Part shown: positions 7,264-32,563 of the stretch, one piece after another | Layout: every line of letters begins with the position of its first letter | How positions within the stretch are numbered: position 1 is the stretch's first letter | Assembly (NCBI GenBank): GCA_023264565.1 | Contig: JAHFLV010000006.1 | Span: 1-37,717, forward strand | Direction of reading: 5' to 3' | DNA length: 37,717 nucleotides | DNA from: Candidatus Zambryskiibacteriota bacterium | GTDB taxonomy: Bacteria; Patescibacteriota; Minisyncoccia; Phycocordibacterales; DATGWK01 | Translations under genes and position numbers: made by a program | Notes under the pieces: generated by a model | Told to the model about the DNA's origin: nothing | Seen by the model: only the letters and a program-made list of their open reading frames with translations | Databases searched by the model: none

Positions 7264-7632
7264 TTACATTATTTTCACTTCAATCGATACACCAGACGGC
7301 AAGCTCAAGTTTGTCAGGGATTCAATGATTTTCTGACTTGGATTGATGATATCAATCAAGCGCTTGTGAATGCGCATTTCGAACTGTTCACGAGCGTTTT
7401 TGTAGACGAACGCCGCGCGGTTTACTGTGTACTTTTTGATCTCTGTTGGCAACGGGATCGGTCCAACAATTTCTGCATCATAACGAAGCGCAGTATCGAT
7501 GATCTGCTTTACAGACAAATCAAGGATCTTGTATTCGTACGCTCGCACACGAATGCGGAGTTTAGAAACACCAGAAGCAGCCGCCTTAGGCGCTTTGACT
7601 TTCTTTTCTTTTGCTGCTGCTTTAGTTGCCAT
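7264..7632 (-). CDS. rpsJ: 30S ribosomal protein S10
   Basis: [14 protein letters not shown]...GPIPLPT...HKRLIDI is canonical S10, with a ~20-aa Lys/Ala N-terminal tail. Confidence 0.95.
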
Positions 7633-7658: not shown

Positions 7659-8849
7659 TTAGGCGATGATTTTTGTTACGACGCCGGCACCAACAGTCTT
7701 ACCACCTTCGCGAATCGCGAATCGCTGCTTCTCTTCGAGAGCAACAGGGGCAATAAGCTTCACTTTGAAAGTGATGGTATCACCTGGCATAACCATTTCA
7801 ACGTTTGCAGGAAGTTCGACTTCACCAGTAACGTCAGTGGTTCGGATGTAGAACTGTGGTTTGTAACCCTTAAAGAATGGAGTGTGGCGACCACCTTCTT
7901 CTTTCTTCAAGATGTAGACTTCTGATTCGAATTCAGTATGAGGCTTCACTGAACCTGGTTTTGCAATAACCTGACCTCGAGAAATGTCTTCTTTCTTCAA
8001 ACCTCGGAGAAGAATACCTGCGTTGTCGCCGGCCATACCTTCGTTAAGAGATTTGTTGAACATTTCGATACCAGTAACAACAGTAGCTGATGTTGGTTTG
8101 AGACCGACAAGATCAACAGGTTCACCAACCTTTACCTGACCTCGTTCGATACGACCAGTAACAACAGTACCTCGGCCTTCAATTGAGAAGACGTCTTCGA
8201 TAGGCATAAGAAACGGCTTGTCGAGTTCTCGGACAGGCTGTGGGATGTAGGTATCGAGAGCGTTAGCGAGCTCAAGAACTTTCTGAGACCATTCGTCTGT
8301 GTTGTCTTTTGCTTCAAGAGCCTTAAGGCCTGAACCTCGGATAACAGGAGCATTTTTACCATCAAAGTTGTACTTTTCGAGGAGGTCTCGAACTTCTTCT
8401 TCAACGAGGTCGATCAATTCCTTATCAGGAACCATATCGCACTTGTTAAGGAAAACGATGATCTTAGGTACGCCGACCTGCTTTGCGAGAAGAACGTGTT
8501 CTCGAGTCTGTGGCATAACACCGTCAGTAGCAGCAACAACAAGGATAGCGCCGTCCATCTGAGCAGCACCGGTAATCATGTTCTTGATGTAGTCAGCATG
8601 ACCAGGAGCGTCGATGTGAGCGTAATGACGAGTATCTGTCTCGTATTCCTGATGAGAAAGATTGATCGTAATACCACGGGCCTTTTCTTCAGGAGTGTTG
8701 TCGATAGCGTCGACACCTTTAATAACAGCCTTTTTTCCCGCTCGGTTAAGAACGTTAAGGATAGCTGCAGTAAGGGTTGTTTTGCCGTGATCAACGTGGC
8801 CGATAGTACCTACGTTAACGTGTGGCTTTGAACGATCAAAATTTGCCAT
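7659..8849 (-). CDS. tuf: Elongation factor Tu
   Basis: 396 aa; [17 protein letters not shown] and NKCD GTPase motifs. Full-length EF-Tu. Confidence 0.98.
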
Positions 8850-8965
8850 AATTTTTACTAAAAATTAACTTTTAAATAATATTTGGTTTCGTTTCTTTTA
8901 TGCCAGACACCGAGAGTATTTCGTAGTGTGCCAAAACAAAAACGACGCTAAAAGCGGTACACAGC

Positions 8966-8993
8966 ATAGTATCAAAGGAGCTAAATTAGTCAA
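8966..8993 (-). promoter_or_regulatory. Sigma70-like promoter upstream of tuf
   Basis: Minus strand reads TTGACT-16 nt-TACTAT, immediately after the U-run of the preceding terminator. Confidence 0.6.
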
Positions 8994-9017
8994 GAAAAAA
9001 CCCCGCATTATGCGAGG
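8994..9017 (-). terminator. Intrinsic terminator of Cys-rich gene 1
   Basis: Minus strand CCTCGCA-TAA-TGCGGGG 7-bp stem (one G-U pair) followed by TTTTTT. Confidence 0.7.
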
Positions 9018-9062
9018 CGTTGTAGCTTTTTGGTAGACACCGCTGTGTTCATTGCCAGTTAT

Positions 9063-9602
9063 TTATGGACTGGCGGGTTGATTACAGCACAAACCGAGCA
9101 ATGCCTTGAGGTTGTTCTGGAGAACTCCGAGGGCGTGCTGCGTGCGATCCTCAACATCCTGAAGACAACTCACAAGTGCGGGCGATGGGATCGGGTTATA
9201 TGTCAGACAATAACAATAGGCGTCGTACCAATTCTGGTTAAGCTCTTCGAGGTCCTTGTAGTATTGAATAATCTCAGCCTTCACACAGTCACTGTCCAGA
9301 ATCCCTCCTGATGGACAAATGAAATTAGGGTCGGCGCTCAAAACCCATAAGAAAAAGTCCGTGTGGTACTGGGGCAAGAACGCGCAGGGATCGTCTGCGT
9401 TTTCAAGTGCTTTCACAAGGAGACCAACCCTTTGGGTGGGGTCGGCCTCCTTTAGTGCCTGGGCAACAAAGTACGAACGCTCGCTGTTCGGCACCAACAC
9501 CCTATCTGGCGGCATGGACACCACCTGGGCCGAGACCGAACGAGACAACGTTGCGACGACCGAAACCAGAAGAAGAACACGAAGATTAAGCTTCAAACTC
9601 AT
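9063..9602 (-). CDS. Secreted Cys-rich protein, family member 1 (hypothetical)
   Basis: ATG at 9602 is preceded by GAGGAG (7-nt spacing). Signal peptide ends VSA|QVV. Eight Cys including a CYC motif. By-eye homology to the ORF at 10812-11351. Own promoter and terminator. Confidence 0.7.
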   Translation of the reverse strand: MSLKLNLRVLLLVSVVATLSRSVSAQVVSMPPDRVLVPNSERSYFVAQALKEADPTQRVGLLVKALENADDPCAFLPQYHTDFFLWVLSADPNFICPSGGILDSDCVKAEIIQYYKDLEELNQNWYDAYCYCLTYNPIPSPALVSCLQDVEDRTQHALGVLQNNLKALLGLCCNQPASP

Positions 9603-9675
9603 GTGCAAACTCCTCAAAATGCGCGTCTCTCTCGAGAGATCGCTGTGTTAAAGAACGATTTGGATTCGACCCAGA

Positions 9676-9704
9676 ACACTACCAGGAATTCCCTTGATGG
9701 TCAA
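9676..9704 (-). promoter_or_regulatory. Promoter of Cys-rich gene 1
   Basis: Minus strand reads TTGACC-17 nt-TAGTGT, about 70 nt upstream of the ATG at 9602. Confidence 0.45.
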
Positions 9705-9715
9705 AAAACAAAACA

Positions 9716-10459
9716 TTAGAAACCGACAACCGGAGGAATTAAATCTCTCGTGGGTGGTGTGGTTATTGTTGGACGAACAGGTGGTATAGGACATTCTTGT
9801 GGCATAAGTTTCAAGGTTTTTGGGTCAACAGTATAACAAAACCTTTCGATTTCAGGAGAAATCGTTGGATCTACGAGATGACAATCGACTCGGAAAAGAC
9901 CAGACGGATCGCCCGGTAGACTCGGTTTTAACTCACATTTAACCTTCGGCAAGTAAGAACTTGGGATATCAAAAAACGGTGTTGTGACCTCTATTTTGCA
10001 AGGCTTGTCAGATGCTTCACAAGTAATTTTAATGACGTAGCAAACACTCGTGCGGTTAATAATCGTACAAAGACGAAACTCTTGTTTGCCATGTCGCACA
10101 TCCCCTTCCTTCAAACAGATTCCTGGAACATGAACACCGTTAGGTGCTCCTGGAAAATTTGGCACTGGAAAATATTGTGCGGGTGGCTGACACCAGTCTG
10201 GTGCGGCTGGGGTTGTTGGTGGTGTGGAGGATGGCTTCTCAGGGGGTTTTGTTGTATCAGCCTTTGTGGCTGTAGTAAACGAAAGCAACGAGGTAGCTGA
10301 TGAATTTGTGGAGAGAATAACAGAGGCCACTGCTTTTGAGTATATTTCTTTCTCAGCAACATTTCCCGAAGTGAGACGGACGGTAAGGTTTCCGGCAAAC
10401 ACAAGACATACAAAAACAATGGCAGCGAGTGAAAAAAATGAAACTAATTTTTTATTCAT
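9716..10459 (-). CDS. Secreted protein with Pro/Thr linker and Cys-rich C-terminal domain (hypothetical)
   Basis: 247 aa. N-terminal hydrophobic signal/anchor (LVSFFSLAAIVFVCLVFAG), a KPPEKPSSTPPTTPAAP linker, then about 10 Cys in the C-terminal 150 aa. Confidence 0.65.
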   Translation of the reverse strand: MNKKLVSFFSLAAIVFVCLVFAGNLTVRLTSGNVAEKEIYSKAVASVILSTNSSATSLLSFTTATKADTTKPPEKPSSTPPTTPAAPDWCQPPAQYFPVPNFPGAPNGVHVPGICLKEGDVRHGKQEFRLCTIINRTSVCYVIKITCEASDKPCKIEVTTPFFDIPSSYLPKVKCELKPSLPGDPSGLFRVDCHLVDPTISPEIERFCYTVDPKTLKLMPQECPIPPVRPTITTPPTRDLIPPVVGF

Positions 10460-10499
10460 TAAAAAAATTTATTATTCTAAAGCTAAAAATAGTATACAG

Positions 10500-10525
10500 C
10501 AAAAAACCCGCCAACAAGTGGCGGG
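10500..10525 (-). terminator. Intrinsic terminator of the lipoprotein gene
   Basis: CCCGCCA/TGGCGGG 7-bp stem, 5-nt loop, U6 on the minus strand. Confidence 0.7.
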
Positions 10526-10549
10526 TTTGAACGGACGGATACAAAAACC

Positions 10550-10738
10550 TCAGTTCTTGGGCAGATCGATGTGTTGATGCGTTGCCGTGACCTCGGCAGT
10601 CTTTTGGTCAGCGACAGCCTTGGTTGCCAGGAACAGCGTCGGATCGTTCTTGGCCATACAGCCCGGAAAGAAGGTGACGGTAGCGGTCATCAGAACGACA
10701 ACACCTGTCCACGTTAGAATTTTTATAACAACCTTCAT
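10550..10738 (-). CDS. 62-aa putative lipoprotein
   Basis: ATG at 10738 with GGAG upstream. Signal peptide ends in the lipobox-like FFPG|C. Followed by a 7-bp GC hairpin plus U-run. Confidence 0.55.
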   Translation of the reverse strand: MKVVIKILTWTGVVVLMTATVTFFPGCMAKNDPTLFLATKAVADQKTAEVTATHQHIDLPKN

Positions 10739-10811
10739 ATGCGCTCCTCTCTTTCTGAGTATTTTGAATATGTACAACCTCTAAATATTATGTATTTATA
10801 TCTACATTGTG

Positions 10812-11351
10812 TCAAACGCACTCTCCATTCTTAACCAAATAAAAAACCCGCCTGGAGGCGGGGTGCTTTAAAGCACATGTTTCACATTCGATCAGGGTAA
10901 CACACCGTCTGGCACACAACTCGAGATCAGCATCCGCCGAACTGAGACAGTCCCCTAATTTCTGAGGATCGTCTTCGTAGATTTCTCGACAATCACACTG
11001 CCTATGGCGCCATGCATTGAGGGAGGTAATGAGGTCGGCCACGTACCGCGTACGAACGTCGTCGACACAGTCTGGATTCAGATGGTGCTTCGGTGCCTTA
11101 CAGGGAATATCGACCAACGCGTACGAAAGCCATTCCATGAACTTGGGATACGTCACCGGGTCATCATCGCAATAAAGCGTCGGCTCCATGAGCGAAACAG
11201 CATATTCAAAGAGCGCAGACTCAGAAACGAAGTGCGCCCCAACTGTCGGTGGTGGGGTGATGATCTGGGCCAAGGATTTTTGTCCTGGGAACAAGACCAT
11301 CGAGGCCGCAATCACACAAGCAAAAAACACGGGGCTTAACTTCTGACGCAT
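10812..11351 (-). CDS. Secreted Cys-rich protein, family member 2 (hypothetical)
   Basis: ATG at 11351 preceded by AGGAGTTTGTG (same RBS context as member 1). Signal peptide ends SLA|QII. Conserved DDP, DCV and CxC (CDC) positions shared with member 1. Own promoter. Confidence 0.7.
   Translation of the reverse strand: MRQKLSPVFFACVIAASMVLFPGQKSLAQIITPPPTVGAHFVSESALFEYAVSLMEPTLYCDDDPVTYPKFMEWLSYALVDIPCKAPKHHLNPDCVDDVRTRYVADLITSLNAWRHRQCDCREIYEDDPQKLGDCLSSADADLELCARRCVTLIECETCALKHPASRRVFYLVKNGECV
10838..10863 (-). terminator. Intrinsic-terminator hairpin lying inside the last ~17 codons of Cys-rich gene 2
   Basis: CCCGCC/GGCGGG 6-bp stem, 4-nt loop, TTTTTTATTT on the minus strand. The ORF stop is only reached at 10812. 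Confidence 0.6.
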
Positions 11352-11418
11352 CACAAACTCCTATAAATGTACCCCCAACAAGGAGGCGTTACGAAAGAAC
11401 AAAAAACACAGACTGAAA

Positions 11419-11447
11419 ATGGTAGCAGAAGAAAAATAACTGGTCAA
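11419..11447 (-). promoter_or_regulatory. Promoter of Cys-rich gene 2
   Basis: Minus strand reads TTGACC-17 nt-TACCAT with the same CTTCTGC block as the promoters at 56-83 and 4087-4114. Confidence 0.55.
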
Positions 11448-11474
11448 TAAATATGTCGTACACAAAAACCCAAC

Positions 11475-11496
11475 AAAAAACCGGCTTTCACCGATC
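11475..11496 (-). terminator. Weak intrinsic terminator after fusA
   Basis: Minus strand AUCGGU-GAAA-GCCGGU (6 bp, two G-U pairs, GAAA loop) followed by UUUUUG. Confidence 0.45.
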
Positions 11497-11552
11497 TTTT
11501 GTTTTTCTTTAAAAATATTTGATCGCCCTAGAGACAATCTGCAATCGCGCGA

Positions 11553-13694
11553 CTACGCTCGTGCTGCTGCGATTTCGGCTTCGACGTTCTTTGGAACGAT
11601 ATCGTAATGATCGAATTCCATAGTAGATGAACCTCGGCCTTCAGACATAGATCGGAGCTGGGTTGTGTAACCGAACATTTCAGAAAGAGGAACCATCGCT
11701 CGGATAACCTTGAGCATTCCTCGATCTTCCATTCCTTCAATCTGTCCTCGCTTTGATGAAAGTGAACCAGTAACGTCTCCCATGAACTTTTCTGGAACGA
11801 CAACTTCAACTTTCATAATAGGTTCGAGAATAACTGGCTTTGCGCGCTTTGCCGCTTCCTGGAACGCCTGAGAACCAGCGATCTTGTACGCAATTTCAGA
11901 TGAGTCGACATCGTGGTATGAACCGAATGTGAGTTCACAAGAAATATCAACAAGTTTGAAGCCCGCAACGATACCTCGGTCCATCGCTTCCTTCACACCC
12001 TTTTCAACGGCTGGAATAAATTCCTGTGGAATAACACCTCCCTTGATAGAGTCGATGAATTCGAAATGATCGTATCGCTTAACGTTCTTAGGAATTTTCT
12101 TACCTTCTTCGAGTTTCTCGAGAGGTTTGATAGTGAGCTTTACGTGACCGTACTGACCCTTACCTCCGGACTGCTTGATGTATTTGTGTTCTGCTTCTGC
12201 AGCGGTGGTAATAGTTTCTCGGTACGCAACCTGAGGCTTACCGACGTTTGCTTCGACAGCGAATTCTCGCTTCATTCGATCAACCATGATTTCAAGATGG
12301 AGTTCTCCCATTCCGGAAATAATTGTTTCCATAGTTTCAGGATTTGAAGTGATTCGGAAGGTTGGATCTTCATCAGAAAGTTTCTTGAGGGCCATACCCA
12401 TTTTTTCCTGATCAGCCTTTGTCTTTGGTTCGATTCGGAGAGAAACAACAGGTTCAGCGAACTTAATAGGATCAAGAATGATTGGATTGTTTTCGTCGCA
12501 GAATGTATGAGAAGTTTTTGCAGTTTTCAAACCGACAGCAGCAGCAATTTCTCCGGCATAAACCTTCTTTACCTCTTCTCGTTTGTCGGCCTGAAGACGG
12601 ACGATACGGCCGAGTCGTTCTTTATCCCCTGTTGTTGCGTTGTAAATATATGTGCCGGCTTCGATTGTTCCTGAGTACACACGGAAGAACACGAGCTGAC
12701 CCACGAATGGGTCGGTCTGGAGTTTGAACGCGAGCGCAGAGAAAGGAGCTTCGTCTGAAGGAGCTCGGGTGATCTTGTCCCCCGTCTTAGGGTCAATTCC
12801 TTCGATTGGTGGAGCTTCGAGTGGAGATGGGAGGTAGTCAACAACGGCGTCAAGAACGAGCTGCACACCCTTGTTCTTCAAAGCTGAACCAGTGAATACT
12901 GGGATAAGCTTCACTGCCAAAACGGCCTTTCGCATAGTCTTTTTAAGATCAGCGAGAGACGGTTCCTTTCCTTCGAGGTACGCACTCATCAATGCATCAT
13001 CGTGTTCAACGATCTTTTCGATAAGTTCGGCTCGGTACTTCTTTGCATCTTCCATGTATTCCGCAGGAATTTCTTCTTCACGGATTTTGTTTCCCATTTC
13101 GCCTTCAAAATAGAAGGCCTTCATTTTCAAAAGGTCGATCACGCCAGAGAAGTTTTCTTCAGAACCCATAGGGATCTGCATTCGAACCGCGTTCTTGTTG
13201 AGTCGATCAAGAATAGATTTGTATGATCGTTCGAAAGAAGCGCCCATTCGGTCGAGTTTGTTGATAAAGCAGATTCGAGGCACCGCACCTTCGTCGGCAT
13301 AGCGCCAGTTAGTTTCTGACTGAGGTTCAACACCAGCAACACCGTCGAACACCACAACCGCGCCGTCGAGTACTCGGAGAGATCGTTTTACTTCTGCAGT
13401 AAAGTCGATGTGGCCTGGGGTGTCGATAATATTAAAACGCTGTTTGATAGAAGTGTCGGTTCCCATGTAGGTTGGGTTCCAGAAACAAGTAATCGCCGCC
13501 GCGGTAATGGTGATACCTCGTTCTCGCTCTTGTTCCATCCAGTCAGTGACAGTCGTACCGTCATGAACTTCACCGATTTTGTGTGACATACCGGTGTAGT
13601 ACAAAATTCGCTCGGAGACAGTCGTCTTACCAGCGTCGATATGCGCAATGATTCCAAAGTTACGAACTCGCTCCAACGGATAGTCTCGATTCAT
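11553..13694 (-). CDS. fusA: Elongation factor G
   Basis: 713 aa; [17 protein letters not shown] and NKLD motifs. Full-length EF-G downstream of rpsG. Confidence 0.98.
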
Positions 13695-13856: not shown

Positions 13857-14327
13857 CTACCAAGCGAAGTGAGCAAAGGCCTTGTTAGCTTCTGCCATTT
13901 TGTGGGTGTTTTCTCGTTTCTTCACTGCTTCACCTTCGTTCTTTGTCGCGAGGATAATTTCTTCAGCGAGTTTTTCAGCCATAGGCTGGCCTTTCTTTGA
14001 CCTTGCAGCCAACACAATCCATTTCATAGAAAGAGACTGTCGGCGCTCTGGGCGCACTTCTCGAGGAACCTGGTAGTTGGCACCTCCAACTCGTCGTGAT
14101 CGAACTTCCATAAGAGGAGCAGTATTTTTCAAAGCTGCTTCAAGAGTTTCGATAGGGTTTTCGGTCTTGGTTTTTTCTTTGATGAGTTCGAGTGCGTCGT
14201 AGACAACGGTTCGAGCCGCGTTCTTCTTTCCATCAAGCATCACATAGTTAATGAGCTTAGCGACTTTGAGTGAGTCGTATTTGAATTCTGGATCTGTTTT
14301 AAATTTTCGCTTAACTTTTCTTCGCAT
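13857..14327 (-). CDS. rpsG: 30S ribosomal protein S7
   Basis: 156 aa; LINYVMLDGKK...EVRSRRVGGANYQVP motifs of S7. Confidence 0.96.
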   Translation of the reverse strand: MRRKVKRKFKTDPEFKYDSLKVAKLINYVMLDGKKNAARTVVYDALELIKEKTKTENPIETLEAALKNTAPLMEVRSRRVGGANYQVPREVRPERRQSLSMKWIVLAARSKKGQPMAEKLAEEIILATKNEGEAVKKRENTHKMAEANKAFAHFAW

Positions 14328-14360: not shown

Positions 14361-14771
14361 TTAGGCCTTAGGTCTCTTAGTACCGTAGACGGATCGGCTG
14401 GTTCGGCGGTTTTCAACGCCAGATGCGTCGAGCTTACCTCGGACGATAGTGTATCGCACTCCGACGTCTTTGACACGACCTCCTCGGAGAAGAACGACTG
14501 CGTGCTCTTGAAGATTGTGACCAACACCTGGGATGTAGGCAGTGACTTCCATACCGTTTGTAAGGCGAACTCGGGCGATCTTTCGGATAGCTGAGTTAGG
14601 TTTTCTAGGAGTTTTTGTCGTAACTTTCACGCAAACACCTCGTTTGAAAGGTGATGGGAAACTTGCTGGGCGATTCTTCAAAGTATTGAAACCACGAGAA
14701 AGAGCGGCCGCTTTTGATTTGCGAACCTTGATGACTCGTCGTCGCTTAACTAATTGATTTATCGTTGCCAT
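14361..14771 (-). CDS. rpsL: 30S ribosomal protein S12
   Basis: 136 aa; TINQL...[22 protein letters not shown]...[16 protein letters not shown] motifs of S12. Confidence 0.97.
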
Positions 14772-18390: not shown

Positions 18391-19332
18391 TCACCAGAAC
18401 CAGCCCATGAGCCCATATCCCACCTCATCACACCAGTCGTTGAGAGTTTTCTGTGGACTGGCGCCGGGGTTGATAGGATCGAGCGGCCACTTGAAGAAGG
18501 GCGGCACCTCGGGAAACACGGTGATGTTGTATATCCGTGTCCGGTCACCATCGCCGGAGATTGTTGTATCCCAACGTTCGGGAAGAAAGGTGTCAGTGTT
18601 GATGTAGAGATACTGAGAGACAGCGTCGCCGCCCGCTCGAATAAAACTGACATCGAACACATAGCACCCATGACCGCGCAAAGCTGCACGCCGCTCCTCG
18701 ACGGGGTTACGAACTCCTCCGGTGATCTTCTCTAAGAACACTTCCACCATGTCCGTGCTCGACTTGTATGCGGGCACATTTGCTGAAGGCTCTCCGAGCC
18801 AACTCAGTGTCAGCGTCGAGAGCGAGCAGTCCAATTCTGAACTGCCATGGAAGCTATACGGGCCGAATGACGTGTCGCTTTTGTAGTAATAGAACTTGCC
18901 GTTGTCCGCAGAACGATACTCGGACACATCACCGTCCATACCACCAACAAGCGAAATGGCCATGATGAGTTTGTCGCCTTCGTAGACCCGAGAATGCATC
19001 ATGCCTGGTGCCATGTAGCAAACTGACTTGATCGTCACGGGCTCCTCGAAAGTCCTCCAGCCGTCCCTCAAGCCGGGAAAACCGGACGTGATAACAGACT
19101 CGAGCTTGAGAAACTTGATCCCCGAACGGAGCTTATCCCGAACGCGATCTGCGATATCAGTGTTCGAGAGCTCCTTTGAGGCTTCTGTCTTGGGAACCAG
19201 ATCGGTCTTTTCCGATTTCTCTGGATTTGCCATCACCACGGGATTGGGTTCAAATCGAGCCACCACGAGCGACTCACCCGTCTGCTTTGGGACCACACAG
19301 AACATCAAAACAAATGCGATGAAGAACTTCAT
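18391..19332 (-). CDS. Secreted 313-aa protein (hypothetical), GC-rich island
   Basis: Signal peptide MKFFIAFVLMFCVV. GAAGGGAG RBS. TTGACA-17-TACTTT promoter and a 7-bp GC hairpin terminator. No family recognised. Confidence 0.65.
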   Translation of the reverse strand: MKFFIAFVLMFCVVPKQTGESLVVARFEPNPVVMANPEKSEKTDLVPKTEASKELSNTDIADRVRDKLRSGIKFLKLESVITSGFPGLRDGWRTFEEPVTIKSVCYMAPGMMHSRVYEGDKLIMAISLVGGMDGDVSEYRSADNGKFYYYKSDTSFGPYSFHGSSELDCSLSTLTLSWLGEPSANVPAYKSSTDMVEVFLEKITGGVRNPVEERRAALRGHGCYVFDVSFIRAGGDAVSQYLYINTDTFLPERWDTTISGDGDRTRIYNITVFPEVPPFFKWPLDPINPGASPQKTLNDWCDEVGYGLMGWFW

Positions 19333-19397
19333 GTGATACTCCCTTCAAAAGAAGCGGTGTTCCAAAAAGTCTGACAAATAACTACGCTCTGTAATAA

Positions 19398-19426
19398 AAA
19401 GTACGCTGTTAAATCACGAATGTCAA
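19398..19426 (-). promoter_or_regulatory. Promoter of the 313-aa secreted-protein gene
   Basis: Minus strand reads TTGACA-17 nt-TACTTT, directly after the upstream terminator. Confidence 0.55.
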
Positions 19427-19431
19427 GCATA

Positions 19432-19455
19432 GAAAAACCCCGCATTTCTGCGGGG
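19432..19455 (-). terminator. Intrinsic terminator of the 223-aa secreted-protein gene
   Basis: CCCCGCA/TGCGGGG 7-bp stem, 4-nt loop, U5 on the minus strand. Confidence 0.7.
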
Positions 19456-19482
19456 TCTGTTGTGTATAAAACGAGTGGAGAC

Positions 19483-20154
19483 TCACTTCATGACGACGAG
19501 TGGCGCCTGTCCCGCGTCGCGCACGATCTTGTTCTGACAGGTGGCGGAGTACGAGCTGTTTTCGTTCTGCTTACAGCTCTTCTGATCTTCACAGTCGCGC
19601 GGACTGCAGGACCTCACATCCACTGACATGTGGGTTCGAATGCACTTGCATTCCGTACCCATCACCTTCCCTGTGTCCACGTTGATAAGCAGGTGAATGG
19701 GGTCGGTGCCGTCCAGGTTCGCATTGTCGATCGTCAGACCAGTGTTGCCCGAAATGCCGAAGTTGAAGACCATCACCTCGCCGGTGGTGGGGCTCATGCC
19801 AACGTAGGAAATGTTCGTATCGGTGTAGCTGGACAGGTCGCTCGTCTCGAGCAACTCGCCGTTCACGAAGACGTACAGGGTGCCGTCGGACCAGTAGTGA
19901 TCCACGTAGTTACCGTGGAAATTGCCGCTGTGAATCCAGGGACCCTCGGTTGTACGAGCGTCGAGCATCTGACTGACCGTGACCCCGGGGATTGCCGGCA
20001 AATCCGGAACCGCCGTCGCTGTGGACTTCATGCTGACCGTCGGCCCGTTGATCGGGGTGACGATCTGGGCCGAAGTCTGTCGGCCGAAAACCGCCGTAAC
20101 CAAAACCGCAATCATGAAAGACGCCAAGGACTGCAAACTGATACGCTTCTTCAT
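19483..20154 (-). CDS. Secreted 223-aa protein with Cys-rich C-terminus (hypothetical), GC-rich island
   Basis: GGAGG RBS. Signal peptide ends TSA|QIVTP, like the two fusA-tuf island paralogues. Beta-rich middle region. C-terminal CKC plus four further Cys. Hairpin terminator. Confidence 0.6.
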   Translation of the reverse strand: MKKRISLQSLASFMIAVLVTAVFGRQTSAQIVTPINGPTVSMKSTATAVPDLPAIPGVTVSQMLDARTTEGPWIHSGNFHGNYVDHYWSDGTLYVFVNGELLETSDLSSYTDTNISYVGMSPTTGEVMVFNFGISGNTGLTIDNANLDGTDPIHLLINVDTGKVMGTECKCIRTHMSVDVRSCSPRDCEDQKSCKQNENSSYSATCQNKIVRDAGQAPLVVMK

Positions 20155-20274: not shown

Positions 20275-21858
20275 TTATGTCTTTTTCGTCAAATTACTCC
20301 ATATAAAAATAATAATTGTAAGTACATAGAAACCGGCCACAATTACAGTTGAAAATCCGCTAAAAGGAATACTTGCGAGTGAAAATTTCGAGAAAAAGTC
20401 GACGACTGCAAGCTCATACGAAAGCAACAGGTGCGCAACGAACGCAAAAGGCATAGCCAAAAATCGCCACACCAAACCCGCGACAGCAGTTAGAAAACTC
20501 AAAAGCATTGTCACAGACACAAGTGGCACCACCAAAATGTTTGTCGGCAAAGAGACAGCAGATACGAATCCTGTCATCCAAGAAAGAATTGGAAATAGAA
20601 AAAGCTGCACAGTAATATTTGAAATGACCAATTCACGAATGCCAAATTTTTCTGGTAACAGATATTTCAGATATTTTGTCAGGTTATGCGCCGAACCCGA
20701 AGAATCGCACACGTTACTCACCCACTTTTCACATTTCGGCACAATTTTAATAACAGCAAACGTCGCCAAAAATGAAAGTTGGAACGAGGGGCTGTGCGAT
20801 AAAATTCCTGGATTTTGAATGAGCATCAGAAATGTCGCAATAAAAAGCCCGCGAGCTGGATCATAACTTCGCATAAACAATCGCGAGATGATCACAATGA
20901 TCGCCATTATCGAAGCACGAACAACAGTCGCCGTGGCACCCGTAACCATAGTAAACGCAATAATTCCCAAACTCGCTGAAAACAAACCGAAAAAACGCGG
21001 CAGAAACGCGAATACCCTACTCAGTGCCTCAGCAACAATAGAAACGTTCGAACCCGACAGCACCACAATGTGCACAATGCCGGTTTTCTGAAATTTTTCT
21101 TGAAGCTCGCCATTGATCGACTGCTTACCATCGATAAGAATGCCGGCCGCAAGCGAACTTTCTGGTTCCGGCAACATGTTTCGAATCGACCCAACAAAGG
21201 CTCGTTTAGCAAAAAATAAGCCAGAAAGAATTCTACTCGGCGGATCGTGGCCAAGCACCGTAACCGAAGCATTTTTTATAAGAAACTTGATATGGTTTGT
21301 ACGCAGGTACCCAACATAGTCGAATTCCCTGCCAGTTTCTGTATAGAAATTTTCTGGCAGACTCACCGTGCCCGTGACTCGCACCACGTCGCCATATGTA
21401 AAATCTTTTGGATTGTCGGTAGTGACGAGGACTTTTATTCCAGAAACTTTCTGTGTTTGCGTAATTTTTTCTTGCGTTTTGGCAGTGGTCCCAGATTGTA
21501 TTTCTTGAACAATTACATTAAGCCGTGTATTAAAATCTCGCTTCTCCTGCTCTTCCCCAATCACGCCAACCATCGAAATTTTTGTATCAACATATTGATC
21601 AATCGGAGTTTTCCGATTATTCAGGACAAGAGCGACGTAACCCCGAAGAAATCCAGCACTAGTAGCAAGCGCAATGACTAGTAAAAGTATCGCGGCAGAT
21701 TTCCTACCTAAGAACAAACATATTGCTGCAGTAAGTAAAAGAATTGCACTAATAGAAATTATTAGTGGGAGATATTCCCTGAAGATTTCATGCGTTACGA
21801 TTCCAGCGCAAAAACTAACCACCAACACATAGAGAATTGATTCCCGTAAATTCACCAA
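20275..21858 (-). CDS. comEC: ComEC/Rec2 DNA-uptake channel (OB/DUF4131-like plus competence membrane domain, no MBL domain)
   Basis: 527 aa, about 10 hydrophobic helices. VSLPENFYTE...FDY..YL OB-like region followed by the polytopic competence domain. TTG/GTG start. Confidence 0.75.
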   Translation of the reverse strand: MVNLRESILYVLVVSFCAGIVTHEIFREYLPLIISISAILLLTAAICLFLGRKSAAILLLVIALATSAGFLRGYVALVLNNRKTPIDQYVDTKISMVGVIGEEQEKRDFNTRLNVIVQEIQSGTTAKTQEKITQTQKVSGIKVLVTTDNPKDFTYGDVVRVTGTVSLPENFYTETGREFDYVGYLRTNHIKFLIKNASVTVLGHDPPSRILSGLFFAKRAFVGSIRNMLPEPESSLAAGILIDGKQSINGELQEKFQKTGIVHIVVLSGSNVSIVAEALSRVFAFLPRFFGLFSASLGIIAFTMVTGATATVVRASIMAIIVIISRLFMRSYDPARGLFIATFLMLIQNPGILSHSPSFQLSFLATFAVIKIVPKCEKWVSNVCDSSGSAHNLTKYLKYLLPEKFGIRELVISNITVQLFLFPILSWMTGFVSAVSLPTNILVVPLVSVTMLLSFLTAVAGLVWRFLAMPFAFVAHLLLSYELAVVDFFSKFSLASIPFSGFSTVIVAGFYVLTIIIFIWSNLTKKT

Positions 21859-27312: not shown

Positions 27313-28863
27313 TTATTGCACCTCTTCCCAAGAAATAGTCGAGTACTGGTCCGATGTCAGCGGAAAGCTTGGCGGTGGGCCATAGAGCAGATTGGCATCA
27401 TACGTGATGTTTCGAGTACAGTAACCGCTACCGATGTTGCCTATAGAGCCACCACAGTCATAATCATTTCCAGTCCACGAGAAGCCATATCGCTGATTTG
27501 TGGCGATCATTCCATACAGCGTGATCTGAGACTTGTGAAAATCGGCGCCGCAGCTTGTATTGTAGTAATACCTTCCGACTCGGCCGTTTTGGGCCATAAG
27601 CGCAGCCTCGATATCAAGAGCATCAGCGCTATATAGCCCCACATTGATGTTATTTTGAGCGATCAGCGAAATAACGTCATGACCATCATGAGTCGAGTAC
27701 ATTAAATCGTTATTTACTGTGATGTTTGTGCGAGTCGATGCATTGTCTGGGAATTTTCCTGAAGCCACCGTAACACGGGTGTTGCTGATTGACCCCTCAA
27801 CCCACACGTTGTCTTCGAAGAAAATGAGACCATTGGCTGGAATGGTAAAAGGAGAGCCTGTAACTGCGGTTAATGCCCCGCCACCGGTACCAATGCTCCA
27901 TGTCGCCCATCCTGGCTGCGCTGGGGTTGGATTCACACAACCACTTGGTGCTGCACGAAGGGTGTTTACTTTATATACAGAATAGGTGTCGGTTGCGCTT
28001 TGGGCATTGAAAACAACCTTGTAGCCAAGGGCACCAGAAGCAGCGAAATATTTGCCTGATGACGTTTGCGCGGCGGCTTTAATCTGAGCCAGATCATTAG
28101 TGAGACCCACAAAATCGACACTTGGCACCGAAACCTGTCTGCCTGATTCAAAAACATCTGTGCGAACCTGCATGGCTGCTGGAGGCACCTCGAGTGGACG
28201 ATAGGTGTCAGTTGTTCCACTACCTGGCGGTGCATTAACGTGCGTATGGACACCAAATTCGAGCTTCTCACTACCAGAATCGTCATGATCGGGATCGTCA
28301 TAGCTTGCGCGCGCACTGCTCACAATATTATGGGCCAAGCCATCGAAACGAATACCGCCATTTGAATGAATCGGGCCGAAGACTTCGGTACCAACACCAA
28401 AACGCATATCGTTATTTGAAACAAAAGCAAATTTTGCCATCGAAGGAATCGCTAGCGTGGTCTTTATTGATCTTTTTATGGTGGTACTTTCAGCAACTCT
28501 TCCTGTTGATTTAATAGTCACAAGCGTTGAGCCGGGTATTGGTGGTGTAATTTCTAGCGTATATGTGCCAATTTTCGCGCCGTCTTTGTCAAAAAAATCA
28601 TGGGAATATGGACCAGCAGTACCCGTACCGTCCGTGAAATCCGTTGAAGCATGCGCCAAATGCCAACGGTAATAATCAATACCGGCTTCTGCAATCTCAA
28701 TAGCCTTCTCTTTCAAAACTGACGAACGAGAAGCTTTTATGTTTGTCCCCGCCCAAAGCACCAACGCACTGACAATAACTGCCGCAATACCCGCAAACAC
28801 CAAGGCATGCACAACCATGAATCCTTTTTTCGAAAACCGAGAATGTAGCTGTGTGAAATTCAT
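27313..28863 (-). CDS. Large PilX/GspK-like minor pseudopilin lacking Glu5
   Basis: N-terminus KKG|FMVVHALVFAGIAAVIV: pilin-like helix but His at +5. PilX_N-like AIEIAEAGIDYY. Large beta-rich ectodomain. Located in the pilus operon. Confidence 0.6.
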   Translation of the reverse strand: MNFTQLHSRFSKKGFMVVHALVFAGIAAVIVSALVLWAGTNIKASRSSVLKEKAIEIAEAGIDYYRWHLAHASTDFTDGTGTAGPYSHDFFDKDGAKIGTYTLEITPPIPGSTLVTIKSTGRVAESTTIKRSIKTTLAIPSMAKFAFVSNNDMRFGVGTEVFGPIHSNGGIRFDGLAHNIVSSARASYDDPDHDDSGSEKLEFGVHTHVNAPPGSGTTDTYRPLEVPPAAMQVRTDVFESGRQVSVPSVDFVGLTNDLAQIKAAAQTSSGKYFAASGALGYKVVFNAQSATDTYSVYKVNTLRAAPSGCVNPTPAQPGWATWSIGTGGGALTAVTGSPFTIPANGLIFFEDNVWVEGSISNTRVTVASGKFPDNASTRTNITVNNDLMYSTHDGHDVISLIAQNNINVGLYSADALDIEAALMAQNGRVGRYYYNTSCGADFHKSQITLYGMIATNQRYGFSWTGNDYDCGGSIGNIGSGYCTRNITYDANLLYGPPPSFPLTSDQYSTISWEEVQ

Positions 28864-29514
28864 TTAAAGATTATCTTTTAGATTTCGAATCGTAACCTGC
28901 GAAGTGAACGTAAGCGGCTGCGTCGATTTTGAAGACTTACGTTCAAGGATCATATTAATCTTAACAAGTTTTATAGCCGAAACATCTACAGGAATTGTGA
29001 GTGGTGATGTTGTACCTGTGTATGTTCCATCGTAATACTGAAATAGTGGTGTACTTGTGCTATTCAAAACCCCAGTTGAAACCGTAGTAACAACCGCAGA
29101 ACCAGAATTATATACGAGCGGATTACCAGTTGGATTGATGACGCTTTTAAAAAGTTTATTGCTTTGAATGTAATATCGAATTTGCTCTTTCACAGAATCA
29201 GCATCAATATCGGAATAAAAAGTAATCGTAGATGTTGCTGCGGCTGCGATCGGATATGCACCGAGGCTCGATGGCGACATTTCACGCATTTCCCCCACCA
29301 TACTTGTCACAGCTCTCCTTCCTTCAATCTGCGCATCGAGATCTTCCTGGATATATTGGTTGAGTGAAAAGACGTCTCGTTCAAAGAAAGTCGTCAAAAG
29401 CACGATGGCGGAAAAGATACCGAGTGCCACCAAAATTTCAGCAAGAGTCATACCGCGCGAAGTGCGTGATTTACCTGGAGTGTGTCGTTTTTTTATGCGT
29501 GTGAAAAAATTCAT
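28864..29514 (-). CDS. Prepilin-type N-terminal cleavage/methylation domain protein (pseudopilin)
   Basis: SRG|MTLAEILVALGIF matches the class III signal peptide with Glu5. 216 aa. Confidence 0.8.
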   Translation of the reverse strand: MNFFTRIKKRHTPGKSRTSRGMTLAEILVALGIFSAIVLLTTFFERDVFSLNQYIQEDLDAQIEGRRAVTSMVGEMREMSPSSLGAYPIAAAATSTITFYSDIDADSVKEQIRYYIQSNKLFKSVINPTGNPLVYNSGSAVVTTVSTGVLNSTSTPLFQYYDGTYTGTTSPLTIPVDVSAIKLVKINMILERKSSKSTQPLTFTSQVTIRNLKDNL

Positions 29515-29530
29515 ACAGATTTTATTCTTT

Positions 29531-31333
29531 TTAACTCGGCAAAAGCGACACTTCTTGTTGCTTCCAAGAACTATTTATAGTGATCGGAATAATCTGAGTA
29601 TCATAATTTGTATGAGAAATTGTTAGTGTGTATGAACCGTTTGGGACACCGGTGAAAGCAGTTTGACCAGGCGGTACACACTGGGAAGCAAAAGTGAAAG
29701 AAACATCGGAAACGTTTGGTGTATATGTCGTGCTCGCTGTATTCAAAAAGAGTTTATATCTTAAATACTGATCATTATTATGAACGGCATTTATTGTCGA
29801 AACACCCGAGGTGTAATAGGTAGTGTCAGTACCGTCTGGACCCTTAAAATTCCAAGTAGTCGTATCATTGTTTGTGGCAATCTGCATTTTTACACTATTT
29901 GCTCCAGTTGCAGCAGGCTGACTCGCCGGCAGCCATGACAATTGATAGAAGTTACTTGCGGAACCCGTATTGAATGTTGAAGAGGTTAATACACCGCTTG
30001 AATCATACACCCCAAAGGAACCAGTGAGTTTCGCTTCACCCGCTGGACTCGTGACATTTACGTTGCTCGATGAAAAATATTGAGCCAGGTCACTTGAAGT
30101 CGCCTGCCCAGCACCATGTGACCAATCTGTTTGAGTAATAAATCCACGCTCCGTAAGCAAGGTTTGGTCGTAACTTCCACCCTGGAGCCGCACCGTGGTG
30201 TTTGAAAGCGGCAAACCAGTCGACGTGTCTTTTACGATCACGAGTAATGTCGAAGGATTTTTTGGCGCAATGATAAGTTTCACGTTCGCAACGCTATCTT
30301 GAGCCAAAGAGACTGGGAAAAGTGGATTTGTTCCAATGAGATCGTACACGGCGTCAGTTGCAGTAATCGGATATGTGTCCCATTCCATATTAGTAAGATT
30401 CCTAGCACCAGAACTGTCAGTCACAAGACTCTGGCTGTATTTCAAAACGTTTGGACTCGTACCAATGAGCTTTGTGCCCATAAGATCAAAATGAAAAGAA
30501 GGAACAGGGGCACAGGCCAATGTTGAGCTTTGAATATTCATCGTACTCACTTCATCGATCACAAAACTAATCTGCGTAACATGCTGTGCTGTCACTGTTG
30601 CGTGGGGTTTAGTTGGGTTTGGATTTCCTACAGCACCAGGCGTGTAGGTTCGGTCAGTGGTGTATCCTCCCTTTGTTACCGTAATTTGATAGGCATTTAC
30701 ACCCGGTGGCGCATCAACAACCTGCAACATACCACTATTGTTCGTCACATCGTCAATTACAATCGGCGTCGCAGGTTGGCTATTTACAATATGCACGCTC
30801 GCATCTGGCACTGGTTGGCCGTTTGCATCAAAGACTCTCACGAAAAGCGCACCGTTTGTTGAGGTTGTTTCAAGTGCTTTTGGAGCCACGTGAGTATTCA
30901 CAAAAATCGGTGGGAAATTTTTGCATGTCGCACAACCAATCTCAATTTCAACGAGCCTATAGTCCGCAGGAGAAAGATCATTCGGGCTGCCGCCAATGGT
31001 GCCGTCAAACGGATCGTCGACGTTTCGAATGGTGGTGGTTGCCTGAAACGTGTACCCACTACGGACAAATGTTTCCGCGTGTAAAAGCACACCGTCTGGA
31101 ATACTGCCACTGATACCAACATCTTCAAAAGCCAGATTTCTAATGAGCTCAAAGCGCTCATTCGCCAAATCCATAGCAACGATTTTTGTTCGAGAAACCG
31201 CAATCACTTTCAAAACTGAAGTGAACGCATTATAAATGCCCACCGAAATCACGAGAAAAATCGCGGCGCCAATAAGCATCTCGACCAAACTGAAACCGCC
31301 AGTGCGATTTTTTTGTGTTTTTTTATATAACAT
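29531..31333 (-). CDS. Giant pseudopilin with CarboxypepD_reg-like beta-sandwich region
   Basis: MLYKKTQKNRTGG|FSLVEMLIGAAIF prepilin motif (start at 31333 gives an 11-nt overlap with pilC). FVRVFDANGQPVPDASVHIV...YQITVTKGGY repeat-like Ig folds. Confidence 0.8.
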   Translation of the reverse strand: MLYKKTQKNRTGGFSLVEMLIGAAIFLVISVGIYNAFTSVLKVIAVSRTKIVAMDLANERFELIRNLAFEDVGISGSIPDGVLLHAETFVRSGYTFQATTTIRNVDDPFDGTIGGSPNDLSPADYRLVEIEIGCATCKNFPPIFVNTHVAPKALETTSTNGALFVRVFDANGQPVPDASVHIVNSQPATPIVIDDVTNNSGMLQVVDAPPGVNAYQITVTKGGYTTDRTYTPGAVGNPNPTKPHATVTAQHVTQISFVIDEVSTMNIQSSTLACAPVPSFHFDLMGTKLIGTSPNVLKYSQSLVTDSSGARNLTNMEWDTYPITATDAVYDLIGTNPLFPVSLAQDSVANVKLIIAPKNPSTLLVIVKDTSTGLPLSNTTVRLQGGSYDQTLLTERGFITQTDWSHGAGQATSSDLAQYFSSSNVNVTSPAGEAKLTGSFGVYDSSGVLTSSTFNTGSASNFYQLSWLPASQPAATGANSVKMQIATNNDTTTWNFKGPDGTDTTYYTSGVSTINAVHNNDQYLRYKLFLNTASTTYTPNVSDVSFTFASQCVPPGQTAFTGVPNGSYTLTISHTNYDTQIIPITINSSWKQQEVSLLPS

Positions 31334-32549
31334 CGACAAGCGCATACATTGGAGAAAGCATTGCGAGCGCAAAGAAACCGACCGCGATACCGATGAAGAC
31401 CATCAAAAACGGTTCGATGATCGTCGAAAGATCTTTGGTTTTCTGGTCAACTTCATTTTCATAATAAATAGCCACGTTTTCAAACATTTCGGAAAGACGA
31501 CCGGTTTCTTCACCGATACTTGCCATTTCGCCGACAAACGCCGGATACAGTTTTTCCTCTTCTTCAAAAACCGTTGAAACAGGCTTTCCCTTCTCTACCG
31601 CAATCTCTGCACGTTTGAGAACTTCTTTATAGTACGAATTTTGCACGACATCACCGGCGATCTTCATGGCAACCAAAATATCGACGCCGGCTTTGAGAAG
31701 CGACGTAAGAGTTCGAGCCGTACGGGCAGAATTGGTTTCTTTAACGATCGTACTAATAATCGGGATACGCAAAATAATCGTGTCGATGGTGCGTCCGCCA
31801 GATTTGGTTTTTTTCCAATACATGAACCCAGCAACAATCGCGATCACCGCACCGAGCGTGATCAAGATATTATTTTTAAGAAAATCAGAAAAACCAATGA
31901 TAATTCGGGTCATAAGTGGTAACTGTACGTTGAGTTCTTTAAACACACCAGAAAGAGTCGGCACCACAAAAATAAGCATCAAAAAAGTAATAGCAATCAT
32001 GATACAGATAATGATTGCCGGATAAATCATAGCGCCGCGAACCTTTTTAGAAAGTTGCTGAGCTTTTTCGAGCTGATTTCCAACGGCCTTGAGCGCACCA
32101 GTGAGACTTCCAGATTCTTCACCGGCTTTTGCCATAGAAATGAATAGTTTTGAAAAAACCTTTGGATGGTTTTCCATGGCGGTGGAAAGAGTTTCACCGC
32201 GAGCCACCCGGGCATTGAGGTCACCCAGAACTTTTTTAAATGGAGCGCTTCGAGTTTGCTTTTCCATAACCGCAATCGCTCGAGTCATTGGCAAACCAGC
32301 GTCGATCATCACTCCAAGATTTTTGGCAAACTGAACCTTGTCAGACATTTTCACACCAGAAAACGCCGACATGTTTTTCATGGAATCAAGAAAGGATTTC
32401 TTATCACTTCCCCTAACCATCTCAACATGAACTACAGTTCCACCCTCTTTTCGGATAGCTTCGTAGAGAGCAAATTTATCTGCCGCTTCTAATTCCCCAT
32501 CATATTTCTCGCCGCCAGTGCGGATTGCTTTGAATTTAAATTTCGACAT
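31323..32549 (-). CDS. pilC: Type IV pilus platform protein PilC (GspF family)
   Basis: 408 aa, duplicated GspF domains, three TM segments, located directly after pilB. Confidence 0.9.
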   Translation of the reverse strand: MSKFKFKAIRTGGEKYDGELEAADKFALYEAIRKEGGTVVHVEMVRGSDKKSFLDSMKNMSAFSGVKMSDKVQFAKNLGVMIDAGLPMTRAIAVMEKQTRSAPFKKVLGDLNARVARGETLSTAMENHPKVFSKLFISMAKAGEESGSLTGALKAVGNQLEKAQQLSKKVRGAMIYPAIIICIMIAITFLMLIFVVPTLSGVFKELNVQLPLMTRIIIGFSDFLKNNILITLGAVIAIVAGFMYWKKTKSGGRTIDTIILRIPIISTIVKETNSARTARTLTSLLKAGVDILVAMKIAGDVVQNSYYKEVLKRAEIAVEKGKPVSTVFEEEEKLYPAFVGEMASIGEETGRLSEMFENVAIYYENEVDQKTKDLSTIIEPFLMVFIGIAVGFFALAMLSPMYALVDVI

Positions 32550-32563
32550 TGTATATCTTTTTA

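Follow-up and report, generated by a model that had tools for sequence, protein, structure and literature searches.

Why should four genes for apparently exported proteins stand between fusA and tuf, whose linkage is among the most conserved in bacteria generally? The question is raised by a 37,717-nucleotide stretch of a Candidatus Zambryskiibacteriota genome (GenBank assembly GCA_023264565.1, contig JAHFLV010000006.1, positions 1 to 37,717), referred to below as the window. Here, fusA, encoding elongation factor G (EF-G), and tuf, encoding EF-Tu, lie 2,703 bp apart. The list of open reading frames (ORFs) confirms what an earlier note on this DNA had claimed for a gap of about 2.7 kb, i.e., that four co-directional ORFs, designated isl1 to isl4, occupy it, all on the minus strand. 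The same note took the broken linkage as its striking premise, which did not survive the comparison with relatives: adjacency is the exception in this clade, with 47 of 55 gaps exceeding 300 bp and a median of 893 bp. On balance, the locus is probably best described as a variable-cargo fusA-tuf spacer of Paceibacteria-type members of the candidate phyla radiation (CPR), which in this genome holds three self-contained units for four putatively exported, orphan-like proteins. The genes concerned are as follows.

rpsL: 14361-14771, minus strand (ORF list)
rpsG: 13857-14327, minus strand (ORF list)
fusA (EF-G), upstream core border: 11553-13694, minus strand; 713-amino-acid (aa) ORF with 61-84% identity to the EF-G of 80 Patescibacteria metagenome-assembled genomes (MAGs)
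isl1: 10812-11351, minus strand; 179 aa with 12 Cys; GGAG ribosome-binding site (RBS); apparently a divergent member of an 8-Cys family
isl2: 10550-10738, minus strand; 62 aa with 1 Cys (in FFPGC); GAGGAG RBS
isl3: 9716-10459, minus strand; 247 aa with 11 Cys, one of them in the hydrophobic N-terminal segment, and a Pro/Thr/Ser linker; no Shine-Dalgarno sequence (SD)
isl4: 9063-9602, minus strand; 179 aa with 8 Cys; GAGGAG RBS; apparently a canonical member of the 8-Cys family
tuf (EF-Tu), downstream core border: 7659-8849, minus strand; 396-aa ORF; Pfam GTP_EFTU domains on the identical gene of an independent contig (L081)
rpsJ: 7264-7632, minus strand (ORF list)

The fusA-tuf junction in related genomes

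For comparison, 80 loci were retrieved via EF-G, the genes for EF-Tu, S10, S7, and S12 were placed by tblastn, and the junctions between them were measured. The loci represent one genome per species, their EF-G proteins are 61-84% identical to that of the window, and nearly all carry the labels of Patescibacteria groups, mainly of the Paceibacteria/Parcubacteria set. The closest EF-G sequences are those of a 'Nomurabacteria' MAG (84%) and a 'Zambryskibacteria' MAG (82%). The four junctions differ strongly in their lengths.

fusA-tuf: 55 loci, median 893 bp, range 107 to 6,711 bp; 47 above 300 bp, 25 above 1 kb
rpsG-fusA: 66 loci, median 149 bp, range 6 to 7,388 bp; 26 above 300 bp, 11 above 1 kb
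rpsL-rpsG: 63 loci, median 27 bp, range -1 to 640 bp; 1 above 300 bp, none above 1 kb
tuf-rpsJ: 52 loci, median 29.5 bp, range -37 to 672 bp; 1 above 300 bp, none above 1 kb

Among the loci with at least 70% EF-G identity and enough flanking sequence, only two have a gap below 300 bp, and judging from the gap sizes of the relatives, the 2.7-kb insert of the window is mid-range for the group. By eye, and without a count, a GC-rich hairpin with a T-run was recognized directly 3' of fusA in many closer relatives. The contents of the gaps are equally diverse. From the 153 ORFs called in the gaps of the relatives, the 110 of at least 80 aa were scanned against Pfam, and the cargo recognized includes toxin-antitoxin pairs (RelB/YafQ, ParE, and HepT-nucleotidyltransferase [HepT/MNT]), an IS200 Y1 transposase, large Cys-rich PG_binding_1 proteins, a subtilase, ABC/HlyD components, pyr and pur genes, an asparaginase, and a holin-like protein. 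Each of the four nearest relatives (EF-G identity of 82-84%) carries an entirely different cargo. The fusA-tuf gap is thus shown to be a clade-wide interval of variable cargo. The island genes were not found at this site in the relatives: tblastn with the island proteins gave no match in the fusA regions of the 80 genomes, where unrelated cargo is present instead. The expectation of the earlier note that the four genes are lineage specific thereby holds, and word-index searches of 5.8 billion proteins with isl1, isl3, and isl4 likewise returned only the queries themselves.

Since this junction is filled with unrelated genes of differing length, while rpsL-rpsG and tuf-rpsJ stay tight, it behaves like a hotspot, with gaps of more than 300 bp in 47/55 loci versus 1/63 and 1/52 for the two neighboring intervals. 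Hotspots that are flanked by core genes, lack mobile elements, and are linked to homologous recombination and natural transformation have been described by Oliveira, Touchon, Cury, and Rocha in 2017 (PMC5635113). The locus shares with them the concentration of gene gain and loss in one core-gene interval, cargo that is unrelated between genomes, the lack of a mobile element here, and DNA-uptake genes (ComEC and type IV pilus) in the same window. It differs in that the comparison spans species and genera of uncultivated CPR bacteria (EF-G identity of 61-84%) instead of strains of one species, that the interval lies inside the str operon, which is single elsewhere, and that the likeness is drawn from gene content and not from recombination of the flanks. 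The literature search found nothing on a fusA-tuf hotspot in CPR bacteria, nor on the accessions of the sample.

The marks of an integrative genomic island, i.e., an integrase together with a tRNA target or att repeats, were not found in the gap. None of its four ORFs has a Pfam match, neither an integrase nor a recombinase is present, and no other coding-looking ORF of at least 40 aa occurs. There are no tRNA genes in the window or in the gaps of the relatives, and no convincing att-like flanking repeats; the sole boundary repeat is an AT-rich 14-mer of 86% identity, which is probably due to chance. No phage gene was recognized by eye among the window ORFs of at least 100 aa.

The source is a MAG, and a chimeric junction or chance reading frames in a spacer have to be considered. 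In favor of such an artefact one may cite the shortness of isl2, whose frame is not the one preferred by codon usage, and the fact that all four island proteins form singleton clusters. The junctions are, however, reproduced in two other assemblies generated with different assemblers, which may share reads with the window: ENA contig L081 (7,139 bp) covers both of them, with a single mismatch that lies off the island (window position 5268), and Logan contig L082 covers the fusA/isl1 junction with 100% identity. Misassembly is unlikely. Long inserts are moreover common at the same place in relatives, isl1 and isl4 have homologues that keep the Cys residues, isl3 extends over 247 codons in the frame that is best by codon usage, and a strong SD precedes isl1, isl2, and isl4. 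An artefact of assembly or of ORF calling is accordingly a very improbable explanation of the island as a whole, and the least certain coding call among the four is isl2, a singleton that is nevertheless called as a gene in both the NCBI and ENA records.

The position of the island is ordinary, and its surprise value is low once relatives are compared. For genome scans this is a warning that an operon linkage with a reputation for universal conservation can be loosened throughout a single clade. An attached life on other cells is generally assumed for CPR bacteria (Patescibacteria), most of whose surface proteins are orphans; a locus at which such genes come and go is hence a practical place to seek lineage-specific interaction factors in MAGs.

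Some observations concern the same operon in the relatives. The rpsG-fusA junction is also variable among them (the longest being 7.4 kb), with 162 bp in the window, and fusA thus borders two permissive junctions. No tuf was detected 3' of fusA in about eight additional loci, each of which offers 7 kb or more of downstream sequence. In some relatives, tuf is missing within 8 kb of fusA; in one of them (L004), the next ORF starts with MPITKSAKKALRQ and resembles ribosomal protein S20, which suggests that the operon was further rearranged in parts of the clade. Six distant relatives (L069, L072, L074, L075, L078, and L079; EF-G identity of 61-65%) each retain a single ORF, about 100-136 aa long, in a short fusA-tuf gap; weak, sub-threshold Phd/YefM-like or RelB-like Pfam matches (E ~0.002) were obtained for three of the six, and the ORF may represent older cargo of this site.

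Predicted transcription units and base composition of the island

In the window, rpsL, rpsG, fusA, and tuf have the order and orientation of the str operon of Escherichia coli and Bacillus subtilis, and the S10 operon is next, with rplC, rplD, rplW, and rplB after rpsJ. The difference is that a putative terminator follows fusA and that tuf, 2.7 kb away, appears to have a promoter of its own; long gaps of this kind are the rule in the clade. A precedent for a tuf gene with its own promoter is the internal tufA promoter of E. coli.

Terminator and promoter scans were compared with shuffled sequence, and hairpins were folded as RNA with z-scores. Terminator-like sites are more frequent than in the shuffles (16 found versus 7.2 ± 2.8), and the four island hairpins, which rank among the strongest minus-strand sites, fold at -11.5 to -17.2 kcal/mol, each with a U-run. 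The signals are listed in the direction of transcription.

11462-11503, minus strand: putative intrinsic terminator of fusA; 14-bp stem plus U-run; scan site 11503-11472; -17.2 kcal/mol, z -4.7
11419-11447, minus strand: isl1 promoter-like site, TTGACC-17-TACCAT, TG-extended; scan score 9/12; its -35 TTGACCA aligns with the isl4 upstream region
10837-10862, minus strand: terminator hairpin inside the isl1 3' end, CCCGCC-TCCA-GGCGGG plus U-run; scan site 10862-10847; -12.1 kcal/mol, z -1.5
10787-10815, minus strand: isl2 promoter-like site, TTGACA-17-CATAAT; the best of the region at 11/12; its -35 overlaps the isl1 stop codon
10498-10528, minus strand: putative isl2 terminator; 10-bp stem with 6 GC pairs, U-run; scan site 10528-10504; -16.5 kcal/mol, z -3.8
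10474-10502, minus strand: weak site upstream of isl3, TTGCTG-17-TAGAAT
9676-9704, minus strand: weak isl4 promoter candidate, TTGACC-17-TAGTGT; under the scan threshold; positionally homologous to the isl1 promoter (alignment A4)
8994-9018, minus strand: putative terminator closing the isl3-isl4 unit; scan site 9018-9000; -11.5 kcal/mol, z -3.5
8966-8993, minus strand: tuf promoter-like site, TTGACT-16-TACTAT, TG-extended; adjoins the preceding U-run

These promoter-like and terminator sites, together with the lack of a terminator between isl3 and isl4 in the terminator scan, suggest three units, i.e., isl1, isl2, and isl3-isl4, the last with one terminator and a weak internal promoter candidate for isl4. 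With a terminator behind fusA and a promoter-like site of its own in front of tuf, the inserted DNA need not disturb either gene. The earlier note had described such units with their own promoters and terminators as insulated, and the predicted signals agree with it, including the tuf promoter abutting the U-run, which the scan placed at 8993-8966. Its GC-hairpin terminators were all recovered by the scan, with the correction that the one at 10862-10847 lies inside the isl1 ORF and not after it. As to its island promoters, the site at 11419-11447 was found, whereas that at 9676-9704 remained under the scan threshold, though aligned with the isl1 promoter, and the site at 10815-10787 had not been listed. 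Its further idea that the island profits from a highly transcribed neighborhood is undercut by the very insulation that it describes. Rfam returned only sub-threshold matches, on a terminator hairpin.

The isl1 ORF runs 13 codons past and through its own terminator hairpin and U-run, and its TGA stop lies inside the isl2 -35 box TTGACA. Since isl4 and the other members of its family end 3-6 residues beyond the C-terminal Cys pair, the isl1 tail looks like the consequence of a lost stop codon. If the isl1 terminator works, isl1 transcripts would be without a stop codon.

With respect to base composition, the G+C content of the gap (0.457) is close to that of the whole window (0.449), and the count of 35/60 G+C given earlier for the line 9421-9480 is correct. 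At third codon positions (GC3), isl1 (0.57), isl2 (0.62), and isl4 (0.59) deviate from the housekeeping genes (0.24-0.49), whereas isl3 (0.33) is host-like. A strong SD (GGAG or GAGGAG) stands before isl1, isl2, and isl4; the leaders of isl3 and tuf are AT-rich and without SD (window positions 10460-10502 and 8850-8884). The roughly 35 nucleotides 5' of tuf show DNA-level conservation in several relatives, with blastn matches extending to window position 8884.

Phage morons are defined by a promoter and a terminator of their own and by an aberrant GC content (PMC3594210). The units of the island resemble morons, e.g., HK97 gene 15, as inserts of one or a few genes with their own promoter and factor-independent terminator, with a base composition off that of the neighbors (GC3 of 0.57-0.62 versus 0.24-0.49), with a location between genes that are adjacent elsewhere, and with small membrane or exported proteins as products. 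They differ in that the island is part of a bacterial chromosome, between housekeeping genes and not in a prophage, that isl3 has a host-like composition, and that isl3 and isl4 share a terminator. An own promoter-like site and terminator were found for isl1 and isl2, for isl3-isl4 one terminator and weak promoters only, and the deviant GC3 applies to isl1, isl2, and isl4 but not to isl3. The island is a new instance of two known kinds, the core-gene-flanked hotspot and the moron-like cassette; what is new are its proteins.

Putative export signals and the 8-Cys family

Each of the four proteins has a basic and then hydrophobic N terminus, with a best 12-residue Kyte-Doolittle mean of 2.3-3.2. 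The putative signal peptides, which by eye have a textbook n-h-c layout with AXA sites, comprise residues 1-28 of isl1 (MRQK, 17 hydrophobic residues, then SLA|QIITPPP; hydropathy of 2.6) and residues 1-25 of isl4 (MSLKLNLR, 11 hydrophobic residues, then VSA|QVVSMPP; hydropathy of 2.6). In isl2, MKVVIK is followed by a hydrophobic stretch of 18 residues and PGC. The claim of a signal peptide or lipobox on all four proteins was supported insofar as the N termini look export-type, but not for a regular lipobox, because the F-P-G-C of isl2 is non-canonical, with Pro at -2, a residue excluded there by the classical pattern [LVI][ASTVI][GAS]C (PROSITE PS00013). An AlphaFold2 (AF2) single-sequence model of isl3, with a predicted local distance difference test (pLDDT) score of 60, shows a helix (4-31), a low-confidence Pro/Thr/Ser region (48-114), and strands (125-221) that hold 10 Cys residues; the annotated frame of isl3 is also the best by codon usage.

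At the curated cutoffs, the island proteins had no match in Pfam, NCBIfam, PHROGs, PADLOC, or PDB sequences, as expected from the earlier statement that none of the families is recognizable, with the addition that isl1 and isl4 turn out to be paralogues from one rare family. Foldseek searches with the isl3 and isl1 models against PDB and BFVD yielded nothing at an E value of ≤0.001, and the matches were disregarded. When the four proteins were compared by tblastn, phmmer, and hmmsearch with about 15,000 ORFs from six-frame translation of the retrieved loci, only known copies and family members were found; two matches selected by motif in this search were attributed to chance. In these searches, isl2 and isl3 are without detected relatives, and no search names a function for any island protein.

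The two proteins of 179 aa show weak paralogy (BLASTP E value of 0.006, 26% identity). Upstream of both genes, the -35 box (TTGACCA) aligns base for base at an equal distance from a common RBS block (repeat D3). From the -35 box and RBS to the signal peptide and 8-Cys domain, the alignments show isl1 and isl4 as apparent old duplicates of a whole cassette. A HMMER search with the isl1/isl4 alignment against 1.84 billion representatives detected three further proteins, P0005 (135 aa), P0006 (150 aa), and P0007 (139 aa), with E values of 5e-8 to 2e-5. The five-sequence alignment (A3) has seven invariant Cys residues in the pattern DPC ... CP ... DC ... CxC ... C ... CC, the last pair near the C terminus. 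All eight Cys positions are present in isl4 and most of them in isl1, in which the first Cys has shifted and C-x-x-C takes the place of CC. A hydrophobic N terminus and the Cys pattern unite the members, all five of which are singleton clusters in a collection of 15 billion proteins. This appears to be an undescribed, very rare family with five known members, which is new but tiny and without an assigned function, so that its direct impact is limited for now. Its predicted products are comparable to small disulfide-rich secreted proteins, with about 110-150 mature residues plus signal peptide, an even number of conserved Cys (8), and only 22-28% identity outside the Cys residues; they differ in having no sequence or fold match to a described family and only five known members.

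The top non-self match of the HMMER search, P0004 (3,390 aa with 18 repeats), is plant NBS-LRR-like by eye and was rejected as an artefact of summed repeats. A likeness to secreted phospholipase A2 motifs was dropped for lack of a Pfam match and of the H-D catalytic motif. Searching with a degenerate DNA pattern that covers N-x-[WY]-x4-C-x-C-W-[ED]-x-[YH]-P returned 11 metagenome matches and 1 viral match, no more than chance would produce, and no family member was among them.

The genomic context of P0007 bears on the origin of the island. Its gene lies on a 13.7-kb contig (L085), which was found in the same arrangement in three sequencing runs, and has the native low G+C content of that contig. 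The genes of L085 are tightly packed, co-directional, and mostly unknown; apart from the only two informative PHROG matches, a phosphoesterase and a thymidylate synthase, a ThiF-like and a weak JAB-like gene were noted. A protein of L085 had no match in INPHARED, and P0007 had no relatives in IMG/VR; the contig is phage-like by its gene content and only putatively viral. Just upstream of P0007 (positions 478-1597 of L085), three consecutive genes have a G+C content of 0.54-0.59 (GC3 of 0.62-0.77) compared with 0.32-0.45 for most others and look like a recent insert.

One may ask whether the island itself is what is left of a phage or another mobile element: a CPR phage would have inserted itself between fusA and tuf and later lost its backbone, leaving lysogenic-conversion genes, e.g., for surface proteins that exclude superinfection. 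The occurrence of P0007 on phage-like L085, with the native G+C content of that contig, fits such an origin, as do the deviant GC3 of isl1, isl2, and isl4, the own promoter and terminator of each unit according to the definition of morons, and the toxin-antitoxin genes and IS200 transposase in the same gap of relatives. It is contradicted by the lack of an integrase, phage structural gene, or att-like repeat in or next to the gap, by the fact that none of the four proteins matches PHROGs (0/4), by the host-typical codon usage of isl3, and by the negative IMG/VR and INPHARED results for P0007 and a protein of L085, which make L085 itself only a putative phage. We consider a phage remnant unlikely. 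From the deviant GC3, the moron-like architecture, and the relative on a phage-like element, we infer that the cassettes were horizontally acquired.

Even less probable, in our opinion, is a secreted toxin or bacteriocin module with isl1 and isl4 as disulfide-stabilized effectors and isl2, perhaps also isl3, serving in immunity or release. The layout, in which small, putatively exported Cys-rich proteins and a 62-aa membrane- or lipid-anchored peptide stand side by side as separately transcribed units, is reminiscent of loci for bacteriocins, immunity proteins, and lysis lipoproteins. All four products look exported, and their strong lineage specificity, with no close relatives detected, would fit conflict genes. 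Pfam, NCBIfam, and PADLOC revealed no toxin, immunity, or defense domain, however, and the gap is without a dedicated exporter or processing peptidase; the homologue P0007 has no isl2-like neighbor, and the lipobox of isl2 is non-canonical.

Proposed turnover of the cargo and neighboring observations

As a variable-cargo spacer, the fusA-tuf gap would receive and exchange its genes by recombination that uses the conserved genes on either side as anchors, possibly following DNA uptake. The window contains, by reading of the sequence, genes for ComEC (20275-21858) and for a PilB-like ATPase, a PilC-like platform protein, and pseudopilin-like proteins (27313-34315), which could feed a recombination-driven hotspot by DNA uptake. 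Among the products, isl1 and isl4 may be exported by the Sec system and cleaved after an AXA motif, with helical domains stabilized by about four disulfides. The N-terminal helix of isl3 would anchor this protein in the membrane, with a Cys-rich beta domain displayed on a Pro/Thr stalk, and isl2 could be a tiny membrane- or lipid-anchored peptide. The products might modify the cell surface or have an extracellular action, with contact to a host or partner and exclusion of phages or competitors as candidate roles; the first of these, already put forward in the earlier note, is speculative. In its boldest form, which we put forward with little confidence, the str operon split after fusA would be a clade-wide landing pad of Paceibacteria, at which transformable cells swap cassettes via fusA/tuf recombination, and the 8-Cys proteins would be exported effectors shared by phages and cells that remodel the surface of the episymbiont for host attachment or phage exclusion.

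Several points weigh against the interpretation of the locus as a hotspot with self-contained units for exported proteins. The recombination or transformation step is one that we infer from a comparison of one genome per species. In the relatives, export-type N termini occur in 22% of the gap genes and 26% of the flank genes (Fisher p = 0.37, not enriched), and co-directionality with fusA is 78% in both sets; the idea that the hotspot prefers exported proteins was rejected on these numbers, and because the cargo of the relatives shows no such enrichment, the site leaves the all-exported make-up of this island unexplained. The promoter-like sites of the region (10) are not above chance (9.0 ± 2.6 in shuffled sequence), though those before isl1, isl2, and tuf are suitably located, isl3 has neither an SD nor a promoter at scan level, and the position of the isl1 terminator inside the ORF calls either the terminator or the end of the ORF into question. 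The annotated frame of isl2 is not its best codon-usage frame. Export of the four proteins is predicted from hydropathy and cleavage sites read by hand, and the terms "helical" and "beta domain" are tentative, since the underlying models have low confidence (pLDDT of 53 for the AF2 model of isl1 from a two-sequence alignment and 60 for isl3).

Elsewhere in the window, a second patch of orphans with export-type N termini is present at 18391-20154 on the minus strand, where proteins of 313 aa (18391-19332) and 223 aa (19483-20154) are encoded between the genes for a superoxide dismutase and ComEC. Their GC3 values of 0.64 and 0.79, respectively, deviate more than those of any other gene in the window, and Pfam gave no match to either protein. 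The gene for the 223-aa protein (about positions 20060-20080), which is unrelated to isl1, has 17 of 18 nucleotides in common with isl1 (window positions 11255-11272), namely GGCCCAGATC(A/G)TCACCCC on the minus strand. These nucleotides specify A-Q-I-[IV]-T-P at the putative cleavage site of the signal peptide, where isl4 has the similar A-Q-V-V-S; the match could be due to chance, a common maturation motif, or a reused 5' module.

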